The notes under the pieces are model-generated. The model was not told the origin of the DNA. It searched no databases and saw nothing but the letters and a program-made list of their open reading frames with translations. A stretch of 53,068 nt of DNA, from positions 1 to 53,068 of IMG/VR virus record IMGVR_UViG_3300037762_000317; one strand, given 5' to 3'. Both the position numbers and the translations under genes were made by a program. Source of the DNA: a virus (taxonomy: Duplodnaviria > Caudoviricetes). Shown in pieces: positions 9,551 to 16,955 of this stretch. How positions within the stretch are numbered: position 1 is the first letter of the stretch; every line of letters begins with the position of its first letter.

Positions 9551-9689
9551 CGCGGTCGCCAGTCTTCTCGCGGGTGTGGCGCCAGCGGTGTTCGTCCATC
9601 GCGGACAGGCGGCCGAGCGCCCACGCGAACCCGAACGTGGCGGCGGTTGACCCGGCGAGGCAGACGAGCGCCCATCCCCACCAGCTCAT
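9543..9689 (-). CDS. small membrane protein
   Basis: MSWWGWALVCLAGSTAATFGFAWALG; RBS AAGGAG upstream. Confidence 0.55.
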   Translation of the reverse strand: MSWWGWALVCLAGSTAATFGFAWALGRLSAMDEHRWRHTREKTGDRDG

Positions 9690-9895
9690 GTGTCGTCTCC
9701 TTCTTGGATGGGGAGGCCTGCGGCGAACCCGTAGCCGAGTGGTTTGCCGGTGTCGGTGGCGAGCTCTTCCGGCCAGTACCACAGGAGCCGCTGGGGTGCC
9801 TCGTCGAACCGCACGACGAGGTGGCCGTCTTTGGTCCAGGCGACGGCGGTGCCTTTCATGCCGTCGGGCCGCGTCACCCGCCACTCGGTGGCCAT
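9686..9895 (-). CDS. hypothetical protein
   Basis: MATEWRVTRPDG..., coupled start and stop. Confidence 0.55.
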   Translation of the reverse strand: MATEWRVTRPDGMKGTAVAWTKDGHLVVRFDEAPQRLLWYWPEELATDTGKPLGYGFAAGLPIQEGDDT

Positions 9896-10854: not shown

Positions 10855-11126
10855 GCGGCACCCGCTTTGAGGAGCCATTGTTCGAGGGCGTGGCGGGGGA
10901 TGCGGATGGCGCGGCCGTGGCGGAAGTTCCCGATTTCCCCGGACCGGCATTTGGCGCGGACGGAGTCCTCGGACAACGTCAACTCGGCGGCGGCCTCGGC
11001 GACGGTCAGCATCCCGCCGTCGAGCATCGGGGTGCGGTTCTCAGCTTCGGCGGTGAGCAGTCGGGTGAGGCGGTCGATGGCGGCTTCGAGCCGCTCGACC
11101 GCCAGCTCGTTGGCGGCGGCGGTCAC
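10851..11126 (-). CDS. xis: excisionase-family HTH protein
   Basis: MLTVAEAAAELTLSEDSVRAKCRSGEIGNFRHGRAIRIPRHALEQWL. Confidence 0.8.
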   Translation of the reverse strand: MTAAANELAVERLEAAIDRLTRLLTAEAENRTPMLDGGMLTVAEAAAELTLSEDSVRAKCRSGEIGNFRHGRAIRIPRHALEQWLLKAGAA

Positions 11127-11365
11127 GACACACCCGCCTCGTCGTATTCGCGGTAATCAAGATGCGGGATTCCGGCGATGACCATCTCGCCGCAGTAGCC
11201 GCAGTGGTACTGCCCGAGCGGCGCGCCGACGAGCTGCTGCGGTTCCCACGGCCATGGGCACGGCTCACCCTCAGACGTGAGCGGACCGGTGATGTCGTCA
11301 CGGGGCAGCACGAGGTCAACCGCGTCCTTCGGCTCGATCTCGGCCCACGAACGAACTGCAGTCAT
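11123..11365 (-). CDS. hypothetical zinc-ribbon protein
   Basis: CPWPWEP...YHCGYCGEMV. Confidence 0.65.
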   Translation of the reverse strand: MTAVRSWAEIEPKDAVDLVLPRDDITGPLTSEGEPCPWPWEPQQLVGAPLGQYHCGYCGEMVIAGIPHLDYREYDEAGVS

Positions 11366-11610
11366 CAGTGGCCGCCGTGTTCGCTTGGGCACACGTGCCG
11401 CCCGGTGGTGTGGTCGTGCATGCCGTGCGTGGTCGCGTCACACGTGGGCTGGCTGGTGGGGTCTTCGCCGACCGCGTCGACGGGCACCGTGTCAGCCGGA
11501 TGCTGTTCGACAGGTTGGTCGGCGGGTTGGGCGCATCCGGTGAGGAGGGTGAGGGTGGTTGCGGCGGCGACGACGAAACGCTTCACGATGCGTCCTGTTC
11601 TGTGAGTCAT
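11365..11610 (-). CDS. putative lipoprotein
   Basis: signal peptide ending in lipobox LTG-C; ATGA-coupled to the Tas-like ORF. Confidence 0.65.
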   Translation of the reverse strand: MTHRTGRIVKRFVVAAATTLTLLTGCAQPADQPVEQHPADTVPVDAVGEDPTSQPTCDATTHGMHDHTTGRHVCPSEHGGH

Positions 11611-13085
11611 GCGGCACCCCCAGCGCGGCGAGGATGGGACTCGGATGGTCTATGGCTGGGGGTGCCGCCTCCCGACGAATGGGCAGTGGGCGTCGCGGCG
11701 TCACTGGTCGGGAGTTCTTCGCCCCCACCAGCGGAAGCCCGCTGGGTGCCGAGCGCCACATGGCCGGTGGGGGCGTCTCCCGGCGCCCCTTGTATGGGTG
11801 CCGCTACTTCGCTGGCCGGGAGGGTTCTTCGTGCTTCGCGCCACAGGTCGAGCAGGATGCGTTTGGACACGAGGCGCATGGCGCGGGCGTGCTTGTGTCC
11901 GTCGCTCAGCGGCGACCCGACCGCGGCAGGGTCACCCTTCGGGCCGCAGCGCTTGCACTCGACTGGGTGGACGGCGTCGGCGTACTTCGCGCGCCCGTCG
12001 TCGTAGACGTCGCGGTAGGGCGACCGCCGCTTGGTCGACGGCGGGCCGATCTGCTTGATGCAGGACTCGGCGACGACGTAGACGCGGGACTTGGCTTCGG
12101 TCGACCAATTCGCCCGCTGGCCGCGTGCGCGGGTCGGCGCCACCCCGACGCAAGCTATGTGGTCGTCGGTCTCCTGGTGGTCGGGGTGGCGTCCGTCATC
12201 CCCATGGTTCCCCTGGGCATCGATCCGAACGTGGGGGATGACGTGTAACCCGCAGTAGGCCCATAGCTTCGCGGGGTTCAGGCGGGTGGCGGGGTCGCCG
12301 ATCGCGGCGATAAGCCGTGCGGCCTGTTTCTCGCCGACGCCGACGTTGTCCTTCACCCACTGCGCGAGATAATGGCGGCGCATCGCCCGTTTGAGCATGA
12401 GCGTGGCGCCGTGCTCCATCGCCTGGATCTGCCCGAGCATGTCCCGCATCGCGCCGACTTCCGGGAGCCCTTCGGGGAGGCCCTTGCCGTGGGTGACGCC
12501 GTCGACCTCCCACGTGGTGGTCAGTGAGCGGATGCGGTTTTCGTGGGCGATGCGGACCTGTTCGATGTCGCCGAGCAGGTCGGCGTGGACGAGCAGCAGC
12601 GCGTCCTCCACCCCCCTGGCGCTCCCGATCTGGGCGTCGTGCGCGTCTTGGCCTTCGGGGGATGGAGGACCGCCACCGACGGAACTTGAATGGTCGTCGC
12701 TCGGTCGATGGTCGGTGGCGGCCACGACACATGCTTGGTCGTCGCGGATGGAATGGTGACCGCCACCGACGTCCGCACGTTGGGCATCCAGCAAGGTCTG
12801 GTCGGTGGCGGCCACGCTCGTTGTTTGGGCATCGACAGCTCGCTGGTGACCGCCACCAACGATGCGCCATTGGGCATCGCGCGCAGTGTGGTCGGTGGCG
12901 GCCACGGGCGGGATTTGGGTGCCGCATGTGCAATGGTGGCCGCCATCGACGCAGGGGCTTTGGGCGTCGGTGCCAGGATGGTCGATGGCGGCCACGAAAG
13001 GAACATGGGTCTCGTCTGTTGCTTGGTGACCGCCACGACCGTCCACCGACTGGATATCGCGGTCATGATGGATCGTGGCGGTCAT
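11607..13085 (-). CDS. tasA: TasA-like Nop/IS110-Tnp-domain RNA-binding protein with no nuclease domain; folded core about 12611-11830, remainder is translated guide array
   Basis: coiled coil DIEQVRIAHENRIRSL, then GVGEKQAARLIAAIGDP...LWAYCGLHV...RGQRANWS...VAESCIK...SPYRDVYD...GHKHARAMRLVSKRILLDLW; no RuvC DEDD or HNH domain; embedded dual-spacer array. Confidence 0.8.
   Translation of the reverse strand: MTATIHHDRDIQSVDGRGGHQATDETHVPFVAAIDHPGTDAQSPCVDGGHHCTCGTQIPPVAATDHTARDAQWRIVGGGHQRAVDAQTTSVAATDQTLLDAQRADVGGGHHSIRDDQACVVAATDHRPSDDHSSSVGGGPPSPEGQDAHDAQIGSARGVEDALLLVHADLLGDIEQVRIAHENRIRSLTTTWEVDGVTHGKGLPEGLPEVGAMRDMLGQIQAMEHGATLMLKRAMRRHYLAQWVKDNVGVGEKQAARLIAAIGDPATRLNPAKLWAYCGLHVIPHVRIDAQGNHGDDGRHPDHQETDDHIACVGVAPTRARGQRANWSTEAKSRVYVVAESCIKQIGPPSTKRRSPYRDVYDDGRAKYADAVHPVECKRCGPKGDPAAVGSPLSDGHKHARAMRLVSKRILLDLWREARRTLPASEVAAPIQGAPGDAPTGHVALGTQRASAGGGEELPTSDAATPTAHSSGGGTPSHRPSESHPRRAGGAA
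11611..11822 (-). ncRNA. TIGR-like array block 3: 4 stem-loop units in the 3' end of the ORF
   Basis: four CCA-N9-CGNNNCCCA-N9-CG units, each closed by its own 8-14-bp inverted repeat (11611-11668, 11669-11714, 11720-11775, 11777-11822). Confidence 0.85.
12138..12243 (-). ncRNA. TIGR-like array block 2: 2 stem-loop units inserted in frame inside the Nop domain
   Basis: CGTCATCCCCCA-cgttcggat-CGATGCCCA-ggggaacca-TGGGGATGACG and CGCCACCCCGACCA-ccaggagac-CGACGACCA-catagcttg-CGTCGGGGTGGCG. Confidence 0.8.
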
Positions 13086-13086
13086 G
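12604..13086 (-). ncRNA. TIGR-like array block 1: 10 dual-spacer units (9 at an exact 45-bp period)
   Basis: 18-nt edge repeats ending CCA, 9-nt spacer A, 9-nt loop repeat CGATGCCCA-like, 9-nt spacer B; all spacers different. Confidence 0.88.
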
Positions 13087-13549
13087 AGCGCATCACATCC
13101 TCAACAAGGCCGTCGTCGAGATCGCCGACCGTCACCGCGCCCGCCTTCGCCATCTCACCGCGAAGCCGGTCGTAGCGGTCAGCGAACGTAGAGTTCCGAG
13201 CCGCCCGCTCGCGGTACTGGTCAGCGATGAATTCAACCTCCGCAGCGGTGCAGTCGCCGAGGCGCTTCCACTGCGGCACCCACACCTGCCAGACCTTCGG
13301 GTTCGCCACATGTGGACGTGCCCGCGCGTACTTCGACTCGCCCTGCGCTGGCGCCGGTGCCACTGAGGTCCGCTGGCGTATATCAGCGAGCCGATGGCGT
13401 GCGAGCCGATGGCGTGCCGCCTCACGGACCGCCCACACGATCAACTCGTCGCGTTGGTCGTCGTTGATATTCGGCAGGACCTTCTCGGAGATCTCATCGG
13501 GTCCGACCGCCCCATCGGCGATCGCGTCATCGATCAGCTCATTAAGCAT
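13082..13549 (-). CDS. hypothetical protein directly upstream of and coupled to tasA (candidate accessory factor)
   Basis: ...WKRLGDCTAAEVEFIADQY...YDRLRGEM...VTVGDL; stop overlaps the ATG of the Tas-like ORF. Confidence 0.7.
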   Translation of the reverse strand: MLNELIDDAIADGAVGPDEISEKVLPNINDDQRDELIVWAVREAARHRLARHRLADIRQRTSVAPAPAQGESKYARARPHVANPKVWQVWVPQWKRLGDCTAAEVEFIADQYRERAARNSTFADRYDRLRGEMAKAGAVTVGDLDDGLVEDVMRS

Positions 13550-13818
13550 TACGACAGCACCTCGTAGGCCGCTTCGAGCGTGTCGGGCGGCACGGACCGA
13601 AAGCCTGGGATGTCGTCGGCGAGCACGGCGGCCCAGCCGGGGAACACATGCTCTTCGCCTTCGGCGGTATGAATGACGAGGGTGCGGCGGGTGTCGCCGA
13701 TGGTGGGCGTGAAGTCATAGGCGGCCATGCCGAGGGCGACCAGTTCGCGGAGCGCTTCACGGGTGTCGTCCCAGGTGACTGCGTGGGCTAGCAGCGGCTT
13801 GTGGCGGACGCGCATCAC
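13549..13818 (-). CDS. conserved small phage protein
   Basis: RHKPLLAHAVTW...LVIHTAEG...GFRSVPPDTLEAAYE resembles the widespread KKPV..TLEG..GE.YP..F..TYE phage family. Confidence 0.65.
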   Translation of the reverse strand: MMRVRHKPLLAHAVTWDDTREALRELVALGMAAYDFTPTIGDTRRTLVIHTAEGEEHVFPGWAAVLADDIPGFRSVPPDTLEAAYEVLS

Positions 13819-14072
13819 TGAGCCACCGCTTCGGCGTCAGGGTCGGTGAGCGCTTCCATGACCGCGTCGTCGCGGACGCCCAACGCGACGGCGATCTCGT
13901 GGCCGACGTCCCACGTCATCGGACGCGACTGGTTGATGACCAGCGACAGGGTGCTGCGGGAGATGTTCGTCTCGTCCGCGAGCTGCGTGATCGTCATGCC
14001 GCGCTCGCGGAGGAACTGGCGGATCGGCCCTTCGAGCGGCCGGTAGCGGGTTCTGTGTCGGCGGTCGTTCAT
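13815..14072 (-). CDS. Cro-like XRE HTH regulator
   Basis: LRERGMTITQLADETNISRSTLSLVINQSR; divergent from the repressor; first gene of the early arm. Confidence 0.85.
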   Translation of the reverse strand: MNDRRHRTRYRPLEGPIRQFLRERGMTITQLADETNISRSTLSLVINQSRPMTWDVGHEIAVALGVRDDAVMEALTDPDAEAVAQ

Positions 14073-14078
14073 GCGGTC

Positions 14079-14107
14079 AACGTAGCGCCGATCGCAGCGC
14101 AACGCAA
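14079..14107 (-). promoter_or_regulatory. early lytic promoter (leaderless)
   Basis: TTGCGT-N17-TACGTT then 6 nt to the cro ATG. Confidence 0.65.
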
Positions 14108-14172
14108 CACATCATCTAACGCTCAGAGCGGGTTACCCTGCGGTATCGGCTTGCCGCTGCGGAAAACGGGGG

Positions 14173-14221
14173 GTTGCGCGCATCGGAAACGTTGCGTACT
14201 GTTGCGCAGATGACCCATACT
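14173..14221 (+). promoter_or_regulatory. repressor promoter/operators
   Basis: TTGCGC-N17-TACTGT and three GTTGCG repeats (14173, 14191, 14201). Confidence 0.5.
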
Positions 14222-14231
14222 GGCAGGCAAG

Positions 14232-14570
14232 ATGCGACCACACCTCGGAGATCTGATCCGCGCCATGCGCGAAGATCGGGGTCTCAGCATGCGCGAGCTG
14301 GCACGCCGTTCCAACGTCGACATCTCGACGTTGTCGCGGTTGGAGTCACACACCCACGCGACGATGACACGGGAGAACACCTCACGAGTCGCGCAGGCCC
14401 TCGGAACGACCGTCGAGGAGGTCGAACGTCGGCTCGGTCACAACAACGACCAACCGGCCCCACGTCGCTGGCCGAGCGTGGAAGAGGTCATCGAGCGGGA
14501 CCGGGAGCTCACTGCGGTTCAGAAGGCCGCTCTGGTCGCTCACTATCGGTCGTACGTCCACAGGCGATGA
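14232..14570 (+). CDS. immunity repressor (XRE HTH)
   Basis: LGDLIRAMREDRGLSMRELARRSNVDISTLSRLE; divergent from cro, upstream of the integrase. Confidence 0.85.
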   Translation: MRPHLGDLIRAMREDRGLSMRELARRSNVDISTLSRLESHTHATMTRENTSRVAQALGTTVEEVERRLGHNNDQPAPRRWPSVEEVIERDRELTAVQKAALVAHYRSYVHRR

Positions 14571-14828
14571 CCGCCGAGGCGCCGTCCAACGCGGCCGTCG
14601 CAGCATTGAGTCGTTCGCGGTGCCATGCCAACTCGTCGCGGAGGCGGCCGTTCTCCGCCAGCCACCGGAGAACCACTATGGCGGCCGCGAGGGCGAGGTG
14701 TGTGGGGGTGGTATGCATGGTGACCCCTGGTGCGTACGAACAGGTGCGTCAGGCTGCCGTCTTTCGCCTGGTGAAAGCAAGCGGTTGACACAGTGCTGTA
14801 AAGATTTGACGGACAGTAAGGAGGGGTC

Positions 14829-15074
14829 ATGAGCGAGCAGTGGCTAAACGCTTGTGTCGGGTTGGCCAAGCTCTACTGGAACGAGTACGGCTACGGCGCG
14901 CCAAGCGAGACCGCCGACATGCACGAGGGTGACCGCACTCGCGCAAACACGACGGCTGATGAGGTCGCCGCTCTGCGCTGGTTGGAGGAACAGCCTGAGT
15001 TTCAAGAGGCGTGGGCGCGCGCTCAGGGCTTAGGGTCTTGGGCTGCGCGGATGGCCGACAGGGAGGGGTTGTGA
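14829..15074 (+). CDS. hypothetical protein
   Basis: strong RBS TAAGGAGG; 81 aa. Confidence 0.65.
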   Translation: MSEQWLNACVGLAKLYWNEYGYGAPSETADMHEGDRTRANTTADEVAALRWLEEQPEFQEAWARAQGLGSWAARMADREGL

Positions 15075-15313
15075 TGGGTGGGGGGCGTCGGGCTGCTGCG
15101 GATCGGGCGTACCACCGCTACGTGGACGCGGGTCGTCGGGCGGGGGAGGTCCGCCGCCACGCCGGCCGGATCGCCGACACCCCCTCCAAGCACCTGGAGG
15201 CATTGGGCGAGGCGGCGCTGATCGACCTGGAGGAGACGCTGCGGGTGGTGTCGGACGAGTTGGACGTCCAGGCCGACATCCGCCGCCACGGACAGCGAAG
15301 GAACAGCCGATGA
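15074..15313 (+). CDS. hypothetical protein
   Basis: TGATG coupling; helical C-terminus. Confidence 0.55.
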   Translation: MGGGRRAAADRAYHRYVDAGRRAGEVRRHAGRIADTPSKHLEALGEAALIDLEETLRVVSDELDVQADIRRHGQRRNSR

Positions 15314-15492
15314 TCGTCTCCGCTGACCGCACCGTGGTCGTGATCGGCCCCGACGAGATGGTCGCGTTCAAGGACGAGTTGATCGCCGTCTATCACATTG
15401 TTGGGAACACGAATACCCTGGTCTACAGCGGCGTGCGGGGCTTCCAGGATCTGCCGCTGTTGGCTGCGCTGGCTGATGCGTTGGATGTGTGA
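15310..15492 (+). CDS. hypothetical protein
   Basis: ATGA coupling, RBS AAGGA. Confidence 0.55.
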   Translation: MIVSADRTVVVIGPDEMVAFKDELIAVYHIVGNTNTLVYSGVRGFQDLPLLAALADALDV

Positions 15493-15496
15493 CGTG

Positions 15497-15769
15497 GTGA
15501 GCGGTCATGCCCCAATGACGGCCGGCGAACTGCGACAGGTGCTTGCGAACTATCCCGACTCCACCCGCATCGTGCTGGCGAAGGACGCTGAGGGCAACGG
15601 ATATAGCCCACTGTATGAGGTCGTCGTGGCGATGTATGCCGCTGAGACGACGTGGTCGGGCGAGTACTTCCTGCGCGAGCGGGAGCGCCTTGCGCAGGAG
15701 GATCCGGACGACTGGGATCCTGCGCCGGATGATGCGGTTGAGGCCCTGTTTCTGTGGCCGGTCAACTGA
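15497..15769 (+). CDS. conserved actinophage protein
   Basis: MTAGELRQVLANYP...VLAKDAEGNGYSPL...LFLWPVN pattern. Confidence 0.7.
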   Translation: MSGHAPMTAGELRQVLANYPDSTRIVLAKDAEGNGYSPLYEVVVAMYAAETTWSGEYFLRERERLAQEDPDDWDPAPDDAVEALFLWPVN

Positions 15770-15770
15770 C

Positions 15771-16955
15771 GTGAGTGTGCATAAGTATGTCGACGCGGGG
15801 GGCCATGCGCGGTGGCGGGTCAACTACGAGCTGCCACCCCACTCGGAAACTGGCAAGCGGCGGAAGTCCACGAAACGCGGGTTCCCGACGAAGCGTGCCG
15901 CGAAGGTGTGGGAGGACGGGTTGCGTGGGCGCATCGCGCAGGGCGACATCCCGCCGGTGCGTGAGCGACGGCAGACGGTCGGCGGCTATCTGCGCGGCTG
16001 GTATGCGGGCGTCGGCGGGAAAGAGACGTGGCGTGCGCATTGCCGCGACATGTGCGAGTGGTACGTGCTCCCGCATCTCGGGGGCTTCCCGCTCGACCAG
16101 CTCGAGCCGGAGCATGTCGACGCGTGTTACCGGCTGCTCGAGCGCGGCGGGTGGCGGCGCAGGACAGCGAAAGGCAAGCTGCGGGGCGTGGGGCCGCTGG
16201 CGCCGAAGACGGTCCGCAACGTCCACATCGTCCTGCACCGCGCCCTCGCTGTAGCGGTCGAACGGAAGCGTCTGCGCCGCAATGTGGCGAGTCTGGCGCA
16301 CCCGCCGACGCAGAAGGCCGCCAAGTCGCGGAACGCCGAGCGGGTGTGGACCCCCGAGCAGCTGCAGGCGTGGCTGGCGCACATCGCCGGCGACCGGCTA
16401 TACGGGGTGTGGTATCTCGCGATGACGACGGGGATGCGCCGCGGCGAGCTCGCCGGCCTGCACTGGGTCGACGTCGACCTTGAGTCTGGGACTGTCAGGG
16501 TGCGGTGGGAGCTGACCGTCGTGGACAACCGTCCGACGTGGGTGGACGGCGCCAAGACCACGGCGGGGGAGCGGACCGTCGACCTCGACGCGCGGACTGT
16601 GGAGGTTCTAAGGACCCATCACGCCCGTTTGTCGCAAGAAAAGCTGGCGTGCGGCCCCGCGTACCACGATGAGAACCTGGTGGTGTGTTGGGAAGACGGG
16701 ACGCTGATGCATCCGGACCGGCTGTTACGCGCCCTGTATCGGCACGCGAAGGCGCTCGATCTGCCGAGGATCAACGTGCATGGCCTACGGCATTCCTACG
16801 CGACGATCGCGCTCGACAGCGGGGAGGATCACAAGGTGGTGTCGGAGCGGTTGGGGCACGCGTCGGCGGCGACGACGATGGACGTCTACCGGCATGTGTC
16901 CGACGCGCAGCATCGAGCCGCCGCCGAACGCATAGCGAAAAGGATCACCGGATGA
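15771..16955 (+). CDS. int: tyrosine integrase
   Basis: arm-binding N-terminus (TGKRRKSTKRGFPTKRAA); catalytic TGMRRGE, KT, HGLRHS, LGH, DVYRH. Confidence 0.95.
   Translation: MSVHKYVDAGGHARWRVNYELPPHSETGKRRKSTKRGFPTKRAAKVWEDGLRGRIAQGDIPPVRERRQTVGGYLRGWYAGVGGKETWRAHCRDMCEWYVLPHLGGFPLDQLEPEHVDACYRLLERGGWRRRTAKGKLRGVGPLAPKTVRNVHIVLHRALAVAVERKRLRRNVASLAHPPTQKAAKSRNAERVWTPEQLQAWLAHIAGDRLYGVWYLAMTTGMRRGELAGLHWVDVDLESGTVRVRWELTVVDNRPTWVDGAKTTAGERTVDLDARTVEVLRTHHARLSQEKLACGPAYHDENLVVCWEDGTLMHPDRLLRALYRHAKALDLPRINVHGLRHSYATIALDSGEDHKVVSERLGHASAATTMDVYRHVSDAQHRAAAERIAKRITG

Follow-up and report, generated by a model that had tools for sequence, protein, structure and literature searches.

Can the guide array of an RNA-guided effector be carried entirely within the effector's own reading frame, and is such a frame kept open by selection or by chance? 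The question is raised by tasA, a gene at positions 11607..13085 on the minus strand of a 53,068-nucleotide (nt) stretch of viral DNA (the window; Caudoviricetes, IMG/VR record IMGVR_UViG_3300037762_000317). The gene and the hairpin units inside it probably constitute a stem-loop TIGR (tandem interspaced guide RNA) system with the effector TasA, whose own frame encloses every guide unit; the contig that carries this system resembles a temperate actinobacteriophage. Selection for an open tasA frame is supported by a comparison of related loci, and not by the window itself. Guide RNAs that double as effector codons would place two selective demands on the same nucleotides, restricting which spacers the system can carry, and guide production would be physically tied to effector translation.

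Guide units within the tasA reading frame

The tasA open reading frame (ORF) runs from the ATG at 13085-13083 to the TGA at 11609-11607 and holds no internal stop over its 492 codons, as described in the original prediction, which had been made from the sequence alone. An ATGA at 13082-13085 joins the start to the stop of the upstream ORF, and a second ATGA at 11607-11610 joins the stop to the start of the downstream ORF; both overlaps had likewise been described. Sixteen hairpin units, i.e. 32 nine-nt spacers (the number predicted), lie within this ORF: ten at the 5' end (block 1; 12603..13084, minus strand; amino acids (aa) 1-161), two internal (block 2; 12136..12243, minus strand; about aa 281-317) and four at the 3' end (block 3; 11609..11822, minus strand; about aa 422-492). 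Fifteen of them are strict units, in which 8 bp or more of stem close a 30-nt loop, all on the minus strand between 11609 and 13084; the sixteenth (12670-12603) has the same core motif and a 40-nt loop. The units were detected by a motif-anchored hairpin scan that required C at loop position 1 and CCA near positions 17-23, the other positions being free. Twenty composition-preserving shuffles of the window gave 0-3 hits each on both strands together, against the 15 real units on the minus strand, and the hairpin units are far beyond chance. The same scan of the whole window found no convincing unit outside the ORF, the only hit being a weak one of 6 bp on the plus strand (9654-9697).

The typical unit consists of a variable stem of 8-17 bp closing a 30-nt loop which, counted with its closing pair, reads CCA-N9-CG, a 4-nt linker and CCA-N9-CG again, the two N9 stretches being the spacers. 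This is the form of the stem-loop TIGR class: in all 16 units two short spacers (8-12 nt in that class) lie between conserved box-like motifs, and the closing arms are variable palindromes, with six different stems of 8-16 bp in blocks 2 and 3. Block 1 departs from the variable-arm rule in that a single 15-nt arm sequence is reused in alternating orientation. The dual-repeat TIGR class has alternating edge and loop repeats, 9-nt spacers and a 36-nt unit; here the units are 45 nt long in block 1 and 46-62 nt elsewhere, and the edge repeat flips orientation and forms stems. The likeness of block 1 to the dual-repeat class is limited to the reused edge sequence and the conserved centre.

Nine units of block 1 have 30-nt loops, a 45-nt period and alternately inverted 15-nt arms in common. 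The first unit (13084-13027) appears degenerate, and the last is the unit with the 40-nt loop. Adjoining units share their arms and overlap by 12-17 nt, which produces the 45-nt period; repeat-finding tools reported a tandem period of 90 nt, equal to two 45-nt units of opposite arm orientation, and numerous inverted pairs exactly 30 nt apart. Block 1 folds much more stably than shuffled sequence (z-score -5.9), and only some of its units form simultaneously in the minimum-free-energy structure. A cut in the middle of each shared arm would leave every unit a stem of 7-8 bp, similar to the 8-bp stem of block 3, and would resemble the mid-repeat cutting of dual-repeat arrays. Block 2 contains the units 12243-12194 and 12193-12136. 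Block 3 contains the units 11822-11777, 11775-11720, 11714-11669 and 11670-11609, which fold as four tandem hairpins (z-score -3.9). The regular unit length of 45 bp given in the original prediction holds for block 1 only. The architecture of this block is unusual: in relatives each unit has its own stem and a short linker, and spacings of 47 nt or less account for only 7 of 308.

The reading phase of a unit is defined as 0 when the C of its loop-initial CA is at the first base of a codon. Fourteen units of the window are in phase 0, two (11822-11777 and 11714-11669) are in phase 2 and none is in phase 1; the units of block 3 follow each other in phases 2, 0, 2 and 0. The claim that all units are read in one phase was accordingly too broad, being correct for 14 of 16. 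A search of the window for spacer targets in either tandem geometry, which allowed gaps of 0-2 nt and no more than 2 mismatches in 18, returned only two artefacts within the array, and Rfam at E <=1 gave only chance hairpin matches far under the gathering scores.

The encoded protein matches PHROG 4285 ('transposase') over aa 154-422. Its sole Pfam match is Transposase_20 at aa 248-284, which is marginal (22.2 bits against a cut-off of 21.3), and no nuclease domain, neither HNH nor RuvC, was found in the Pfam scan. A phmmer search of the PDB returned a single entry, 9MTY (E 1.7e-6), which is TaTasR (Xu et al., bioRxiv 10.64898/2026.09.09.750476, September 2026). In an AlphaFold2 model built from 59 aligned sequences, the predicted local distance difference test (pLDDT) exceeds 90 for most of aa 156-288 and 316-430, the core of the protein, and is below 50 for most of aa 1-151, 289-315 and 434-492. 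The latter are the three array-coded segments, which are predicted to be disordered. The ten best Foldseek matches are all TasR or TasH chains (probability 1.00, E 6.5e-7 to 2.6e-4), followed by IS621 recombinases and then, weakly, by Nop5 and Prp31. The model displays the Nop-domain fold of Tas proteins, with a coiled coil and a C-terminal RNA-binding domain, and it has no fused HNH or RuvC nuclease, aa 1-151 being array-coded. Because TasR and TasH are the best structural matches and Pfam reveals no nuclease domain, the protein is assigned by sequence and predicted fold to the nuclease-less Tas proteins, TasA. An identification as an IS110-family transposase was rejected, since no N-terminal DEDD (RuvC-like) domain was found in Pfam at E <=1 and there is no folded N-terminal domain.

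The first part of the Nop-domain core (about aa 156-288; 12222..12620, minus strand) comprises coiled-coil helices and a helix-hairpin-helix-like 'GVGEKQ' region and is aligned with TaTasR residues 141-213. The second part (about aa 316-430; 11796..12140, minus strand) is aligned with TaTasR residues 220-294. The wedge loop of TaTasR is defined as G210-K230 (Xu et al.). The alignment gap between residues 213 and 220 falls in this wedge, and block 2 therefore codes for a wedge-loop insertion of the Nop domain.

Frame, phase and start in related loci

A word-indexed protein search with TasA yielded 1,369 proteins at E <=1e-5. Among the 120 matches listed, the relatives are 273-503 aa long, with an N-terminal extension of 5-182 aa (median 75) before the core and a variable insertion at the position of block 2. 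The loci studied numbered 164 (two sets of viral contigs, of 5 and 51, 80 contigs from metagenomes, 25 from genomes and 3 annotated phage regions), and 150 sequences, the window counted, include the N-terminal part of the core. Clustering of the cores at 85% identity gave 101 representatives, 75 of which (74 without the window) carry an upstream chain of at least two units. Frame statistics were taken from the first unit to the core, with the tasA frame as frame 0, and the tests on stops and on phases were drawn from the same set of loci. The unit detector was tuned to the motif of this clade and to loops of 29-32 nt, and unit counts in distant relatives are lower bounds.

The consensus of 594 units from the 101 representative loci, including the window, is again CCA-N9-CG twice, with an internal two-fold form. 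The stem closes on C and is followed by CA, N9, CG, four linker nucleotides (approximately A-Y-R-C), CCA, N9 and C, after which G opens the 3' arm. The 5' arms comprise 467 distinct sequences in 557 units, and every one of them pairs with a 3' arm of its own. With 352 distinct spacer pairs in 355 units, the arrays are in effect independent of each other.

Upstream arrays free of stops were found in frames 0, 1 and 2 in 54, 18 and 17, respectively, of the 74 loci other than the window. Under exchangeability of the frames within each locus, the number expected to be stop-free in frame 0 is 29.7 of 74 (P 3e-12). Merging of loci that share a unit left the result similar, at 52, 17 and 17 of 72 groups. 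Of the 42 loci whose cores are at least 45% identical, 38 are stop-free in frame 0, and stops per 100 codons amount to 0.11, 1.13 and 2.02 in frames 0, 1 and 2. This is a frame-specific stop depletion of 10- to 18-fold in close relatives. In the more distant 32 loci, 16 are stop-free in frame 0 and the corresponding densities are 1.26, 1.43 and 1.76; this set is a mixture of coding and non-coding arrays.

The reading phases of the units point in the same direction. Upstream units of loci with open arrays are distributed over phases 0, 1 and 2 as 115/2/138 (255 units), and upstream units of loci with an in-frame stop as 28/26/18. Internal units, which are necessarily translated, show 124/0/1, although they occupy one orthologous site and are hence not mutually independent. 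Units within 3' ORF tails show 14/0/2, and units past the stop codon 13/9/16. Phase 1 is avoided only where units lie in open frames. Sorting of the loci by stops does not explain this avoidance, because only 34% of units would hold a stop in phase 1. Reading in phase 1 would place the fixed CCA, CGA and CCA triplets in frame and yield Pro- and Arg-rich peptides with A-ending codons. Codons that end in A are rare in high-GC actinobacteria.

Spacer composition is skewed as well. At the first codon position of spacers in open arrays the frequency of T is 0.136 and that of G 0.383, while the values in arrays with stops are flat (0.23 and 0.24). From this composition it is suggested that the coded residues constrain which spacers are retained. 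By a rough estimate, the T-poor and G-rich first position is a larger effect than stop removal alone would give.

A start codon upstream of the array is also conserved. In 45 of the 54 open relatives an in-frame ATG or GTG shares an ATGA or GTGA with the TGA that ends an ORF of 60 codons or more, and this start is mostly located about 11-26 nt upstream of the first unit. Of the remaining nine, two are short contigs without an upstream ORF, four have no in-frame start upstream of the first unit, two have other arrangements and one has a frame that runs off the contig end. The comparison of homologous loci, suggested as a check in the original prediction, thus went in its favour: close relatives seldom carry stops or frameshifts, and frame, phase and start are preserved. 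With frame-specific loss of stops, a forbidden phase and a conserved start overlap, what was a statement about arrays being able to lie in frame becomes a claim of their translation, and one that can be tested.

Translated and untranslated arrays

Translation in this phage from ATG 13085 through all three blocks is considered likely from these comparisons. Translation of tasA would start at this ATG, coupled to the stop of the upstream gene, and ribosomes would traverse the ten units of block 1, the Nop-domain core with its two wedge-loop-coding units and the last four units, and would stop at the next gene's start codon. What the array codes for would be a tolerated appendage, namely tails and a loop that are disordered and lack any conserved peptide sequence. 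TIGR guide RNAs (tigRNAs), cut from this tasA transcript or from a further copy, would load TasA for RNA-guided DNA binding without cleavage. The frame would be kept open chiefly because the start of the effector, as the only efficient one, lies upstream of the array, such that a stop or frameshift in a spacer would abolish TasA. The anatomy and the fold are demonstrated here, together with the signatures of selection among relatives; transcription, processing, the start used in this phage and any regulatory coupling of guide excision to translation are inferred.

Several observations weigh against this reading. Within block 1, from 13064 to 12612, frames 1 and 2 of the minus strand are likewise free of stops (the only ones nearby are at 13084 and 13065, at the 5' edge of the block), and one frame of the plus strand is also open across the block. 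When the spacer letters were shuffled 20,000 times and open frames counted, block 1 was stop-free in 26%, 24% and 20% of the trials in frames 0, 1 and 2, and the entire ORF remained open in 10%. Taken by itself, the open tasA frame of the window is within chance and carries no frame-specific signal. Within the window, the proposed simulation of chance openness accordingly gave no support to the original prediction (10-26% of shuffles open), and its claim of a frame under selection stands on the relatives, by stops, phase and start overlap, and not on the window's own frame. The G+C content at third codon positions (GC3), 0.83 in the core, is lower in block 1 (0.68) and over the last 130 nt (0.60), so that codon-position GC in the array-coded stretches of the window is not coding-like. 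In relatives the GC3 of spacers is 0.56 versus 0.83 for the core, and codon optimisation is therefore absent. The array-coded peptide shows no sequence conservation and is predicted to be disordered. Upstream arrays of 20 of the 74 relatives contain in-frame stops, and translation is therefore not needed for array function in this family generally. Among 66 downstream units from 29 loci (the window's four counted), 44 are not wholly within the ORF. Also, gp71 of Mycobacterium phage Kanely is annotated in a short form, with units in a 338-nt gap. From this annotation, the in-frame stops and the units outside the ORF it follows that arrays of this family work untranslated too. Finally, a GTG at 12609..12611 (minus strand; V159), within the 3' arm GGGGGGTGGAGGAC of the last block-1 hairpin, could serve as a start. 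Its presence at 12611 had been pointed out in the original prediction. A purine-rich GGGAG read by eye is located upstream of it, and the first helix of the AlphaFold2 model begins close by, at aa 156. A short form of TasA from this GTG, alone or alongside the long form, is possible.

Several of these points would also be expected if block 1 were an untranslated leader array, with TasA starting at or near GTG 12611, the open frame and the ATGA due to chance and only blocks 2 and 3 translated. The openness of all three frames over block 1 and in 26% of shuffles, the low GC3 of the block, the beginning of the folded protein at aa 156 and the non-coding upstream arrays of 20 of the 74 relatives, with Kanely as annotated, all agree with such a leader. 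This explanation is nevertheless improbable: the open frame of 38 of 42 close relatives, among which stops are 10- to 18-fold rarer than in the other frames, the ATGA or GTGA start upstream of the array in 45 of the 54 open relatives and the allowed phase of ten of ten block-1 units argue against it, and GTG 12611 is buried in a 14-bp hairpin arm. Blocks 2 and 3 would be translated whichever start is used, because they are inside or downstream of the core without an intervening stop. Their coding status from GTG 12611 had been foreseen.

Translation from ATG 13085 could also have a function of its own, either by ribosome transit that shields the long structured leader from Rho-dependent polarity, as put forward in the original prediction, or by guide cutting that feeds back on TasA synthesis, each transcript in the latter version giving either protein or guides. 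Such a role is possible but rather doubtful. The units fill the ORF from start codon to stop codon and both ends overlap neighbouring genes, and a scan of the minus strand from 11000 to 14400 for sigma-70-type promoters and intrinsic terminators found neither, a result of low weight since the consensus suits actinobacteria poorly. A link between tigRNA maturation and Tas translation was raised by Xu et al. (bioRxiv 10.64898/2026.09.09.750476), who also allow for separate internal promoters, a point against such a role. Relatives carry untranslated arrays at the same operon position, and an upstream start that makes stops lethal to TasA is the simpler explanation and covers all signatures found. 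A further view, held tentatively as a whole, is that the embedding of guides in the effector ORF is an obligate dual-coding design with its own grammar rather than an accident of packing. Insertion of units may be confined to two of the three reading phases, spacers may be filtered for harmless codons, as in the loss of T at codon position 1, and the tasA transcript may be either protein template or guide set, which would fix the ratio of protein to guides in cis. Block 1, with its shared arms, may then be a compacted intermediate between stem-loop and dual-repeat forms.

An ordinary protein-coding tandem repeat, that is, a low-complexity tail under peptide-level selection with incidental hairpins, has very little probability. 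The 45-nt period of block 1 is divisible by 3 and yields recurring VAATD/VGGGH and DAQ-type peptides, as would be expected of such a repeat. However, conservation is at the nucleotide level (CCA-N9-CG twice per unit, with pairing arms of differing sequence), the motif is read in two different phases and it occurs also in stretches with stops or past the stop codon. In relatives the median unit spacing is 59 nt, and multiples of 3 account for only 133 of 308 spacings. A peptide-level tandem repeat was rejected on these grounds.

Known systems, individual relatives and gene neighbourhood

In-frame intragenic stem-loop TIGR arrays were reported by Xu et al. (bioRxiv 10.64898/2026.09.09.750476), with the intragenic units located in disordered regions and extended disordered N-termini in many TasA clades. 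Small-RNA sequencing of the TasA of Bifidobacterium longum (BlTasA) revealed tigRNAs within the coding sequence at the wedge loop. The same authors proposed that embedding may link tigRNA maturation to Tas translation, and stated that processing of the tas transcript and internal promoters are not yet distinguishable. BlTasA resembles the window in its intragenic units at the wedge loop (compare block 2), its disordered regions and the absence of a nuclease domain from TasA, as far as the published description goes. The window differs in that all 16 units are in the ORF, with none convincing outside, and in the shared, alternately inverted arms of block 1 at a 45-nt period. The conserved CUU that Xu et al. 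describe at the stem base as a processing mark is not evident here, no separate test of the window units having been made; of 557 units from the representative loci, 157 have CTT close to the base of the 5' arm, compared to 42 of 557 in a control stretch, and the triplet is enriched without being general.

Faure et al. (Science 2025, PMC12045711) described a nuclease-less TasA on a gut contig of Peromyscus leucopus, with 13 stem-loop units arranged as three subarrays. Its units have two spacers, box-like flanking motifs and a variable closing palindrome, and are processed to single-hairpin RNAs. The window agrees with this stem-loop class in unit form and in its nuclease-less TasA. The Peromyscus subarrays, unlike those of the window, are split by an intergenic region and are not described as coding in the available text of that paper; they belong to another organism and clade. 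TaTasR (9MTY) and SpTasH (9W03, 9W04), the best structural and sequence matches, share the Nop-domain fold, coiled coil and wedge with the TasA of the window, but carry a RuvC or HNH nuclease domain, and their tigRNAs are of the 36-nt dual-repeat type and come from arrays that lie outside the gene. IS110-family transposases, the source of the PHROG and RefSeq label 'transposase', are weakly similar in the C-terminal domain, with IS621 as a more distant structural match, but possess a DEDD/RuvC-like N-terminal domain where the N-terminus of the window protein is array-coded and predicted to be disordered.

The phenomenon and the idea of coupling are already in print (Xu et al., bioRxiv 10.64898/2026.09.09.750476); a literature search found tigRNA together with 'intragenic' only in that paper among the matches listed. 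The statistics of selection, the forbidden phase, the composition bias at codon position 1, the conserved overlapping start, the shared-arm 45-nt array and a locus with all 16 units inside the ORF go beyond its available text. A rule for the annotation of these actinophages is that genes labelled 'hypothetical protein' or 'transposase' can contain TIGR arrays where the protein is disordered, at the N-terminus, the wedge loop or the C-terminus. Relatives are present in cultured phages of Gordonia terrae and Mycobacterium smegmatis, which makes experiments feasible, and 83 Mycobacterium phage records hold a relative of this TasA.

Curated annotation of the relatives is split between a long form (Spooky gp50) and a short form (Kanely gp71). 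Spooky gp50 (Gordonia phage, MK937597.1), annotated only as a hypothetical protein, has a core 45.5% identical to that of the window. It is a single coding sequence of 419 aa with 4-nt overlaps to both neighbours and about seven units in its N-terminal extension, it is located in the gene string that follows cro, and the gene order of Spooky is the same as in the window. Unlike block 1, its units have each their own stem and a spacing of about 55-60 nt, and no wedge or C-terminal-tail units were found by the unit detector. A second group of three units lies about 600 nt upstream of gp50 (832-1004 of locus L031), overlapping gene 48 at its 3' end as well as the gap that follows. In Kanely the gap before gp71 (1657-1995 of locus L032) contains four units; upstream of the core the tasA frame stays open over 390 nt, but it offers no start codon ahead of the first unit. 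In prophiFSAT01-1, gene 26 (1765-1989 of locus L033), a 74-aa 'hypothetical protein' directly upstream of the tasA homologue, holds two units (1777-1830 and 1838-1891), and the tasA frame has three stops from the first unit to the core. Gene 26 may be a spurious gene call or an array read in another frame. A close relative, protein P0065 (65% identity over 42% of the query), carries the HNH Pfam domains PF01844 and PF14279 and is a TasH-like fusion inside an otherwise TasA clade.

The ORF upstream of tasA (13082..13549, minus strand; 155 aa) belongs to PHROG 4604 ('unknown function') and has no Pfam match. Its relatives are found directly upstream of tasA on the same strand in 27 of 100 representative loci, and it may be a partner gene of tasA. 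A ParB-like identity, as in the tasParB operons of Faure et al., was considered for this gene and is unsupported by Pfam. The downstream ORF (11365..11610, minus strand; 81 aa) has no family match; it begins with MTHRTGRIVKRFVVAAATTLTLLTGC, which by eye resembles a lipoprotein signal, lipobox included. No match to 11300-13600 was returned by megablast from the phage collection, from which near-identical records may be absent. Among public sequencing runs, one DNA data set was listed as containing the sequence, a sediment metagenome that may be its source, and no RNA data set was listed. Two small ORFs separate tasA from a Cro/C1-type helix-turn-helix (HTH) gene (13815..14102, minus strand), which heads the leftward gene string that includes tasA, and the earlier designation of this string as an early operon is reasonable from the gene order. 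The Cro/C1-type gene is divergent from an HTH repressor-like gene (14232-14570, plus strand), which is followed by an integrase (15543-16955, plus strand). With these three genes, 13815-16955 is a temperate-phage immunity region.

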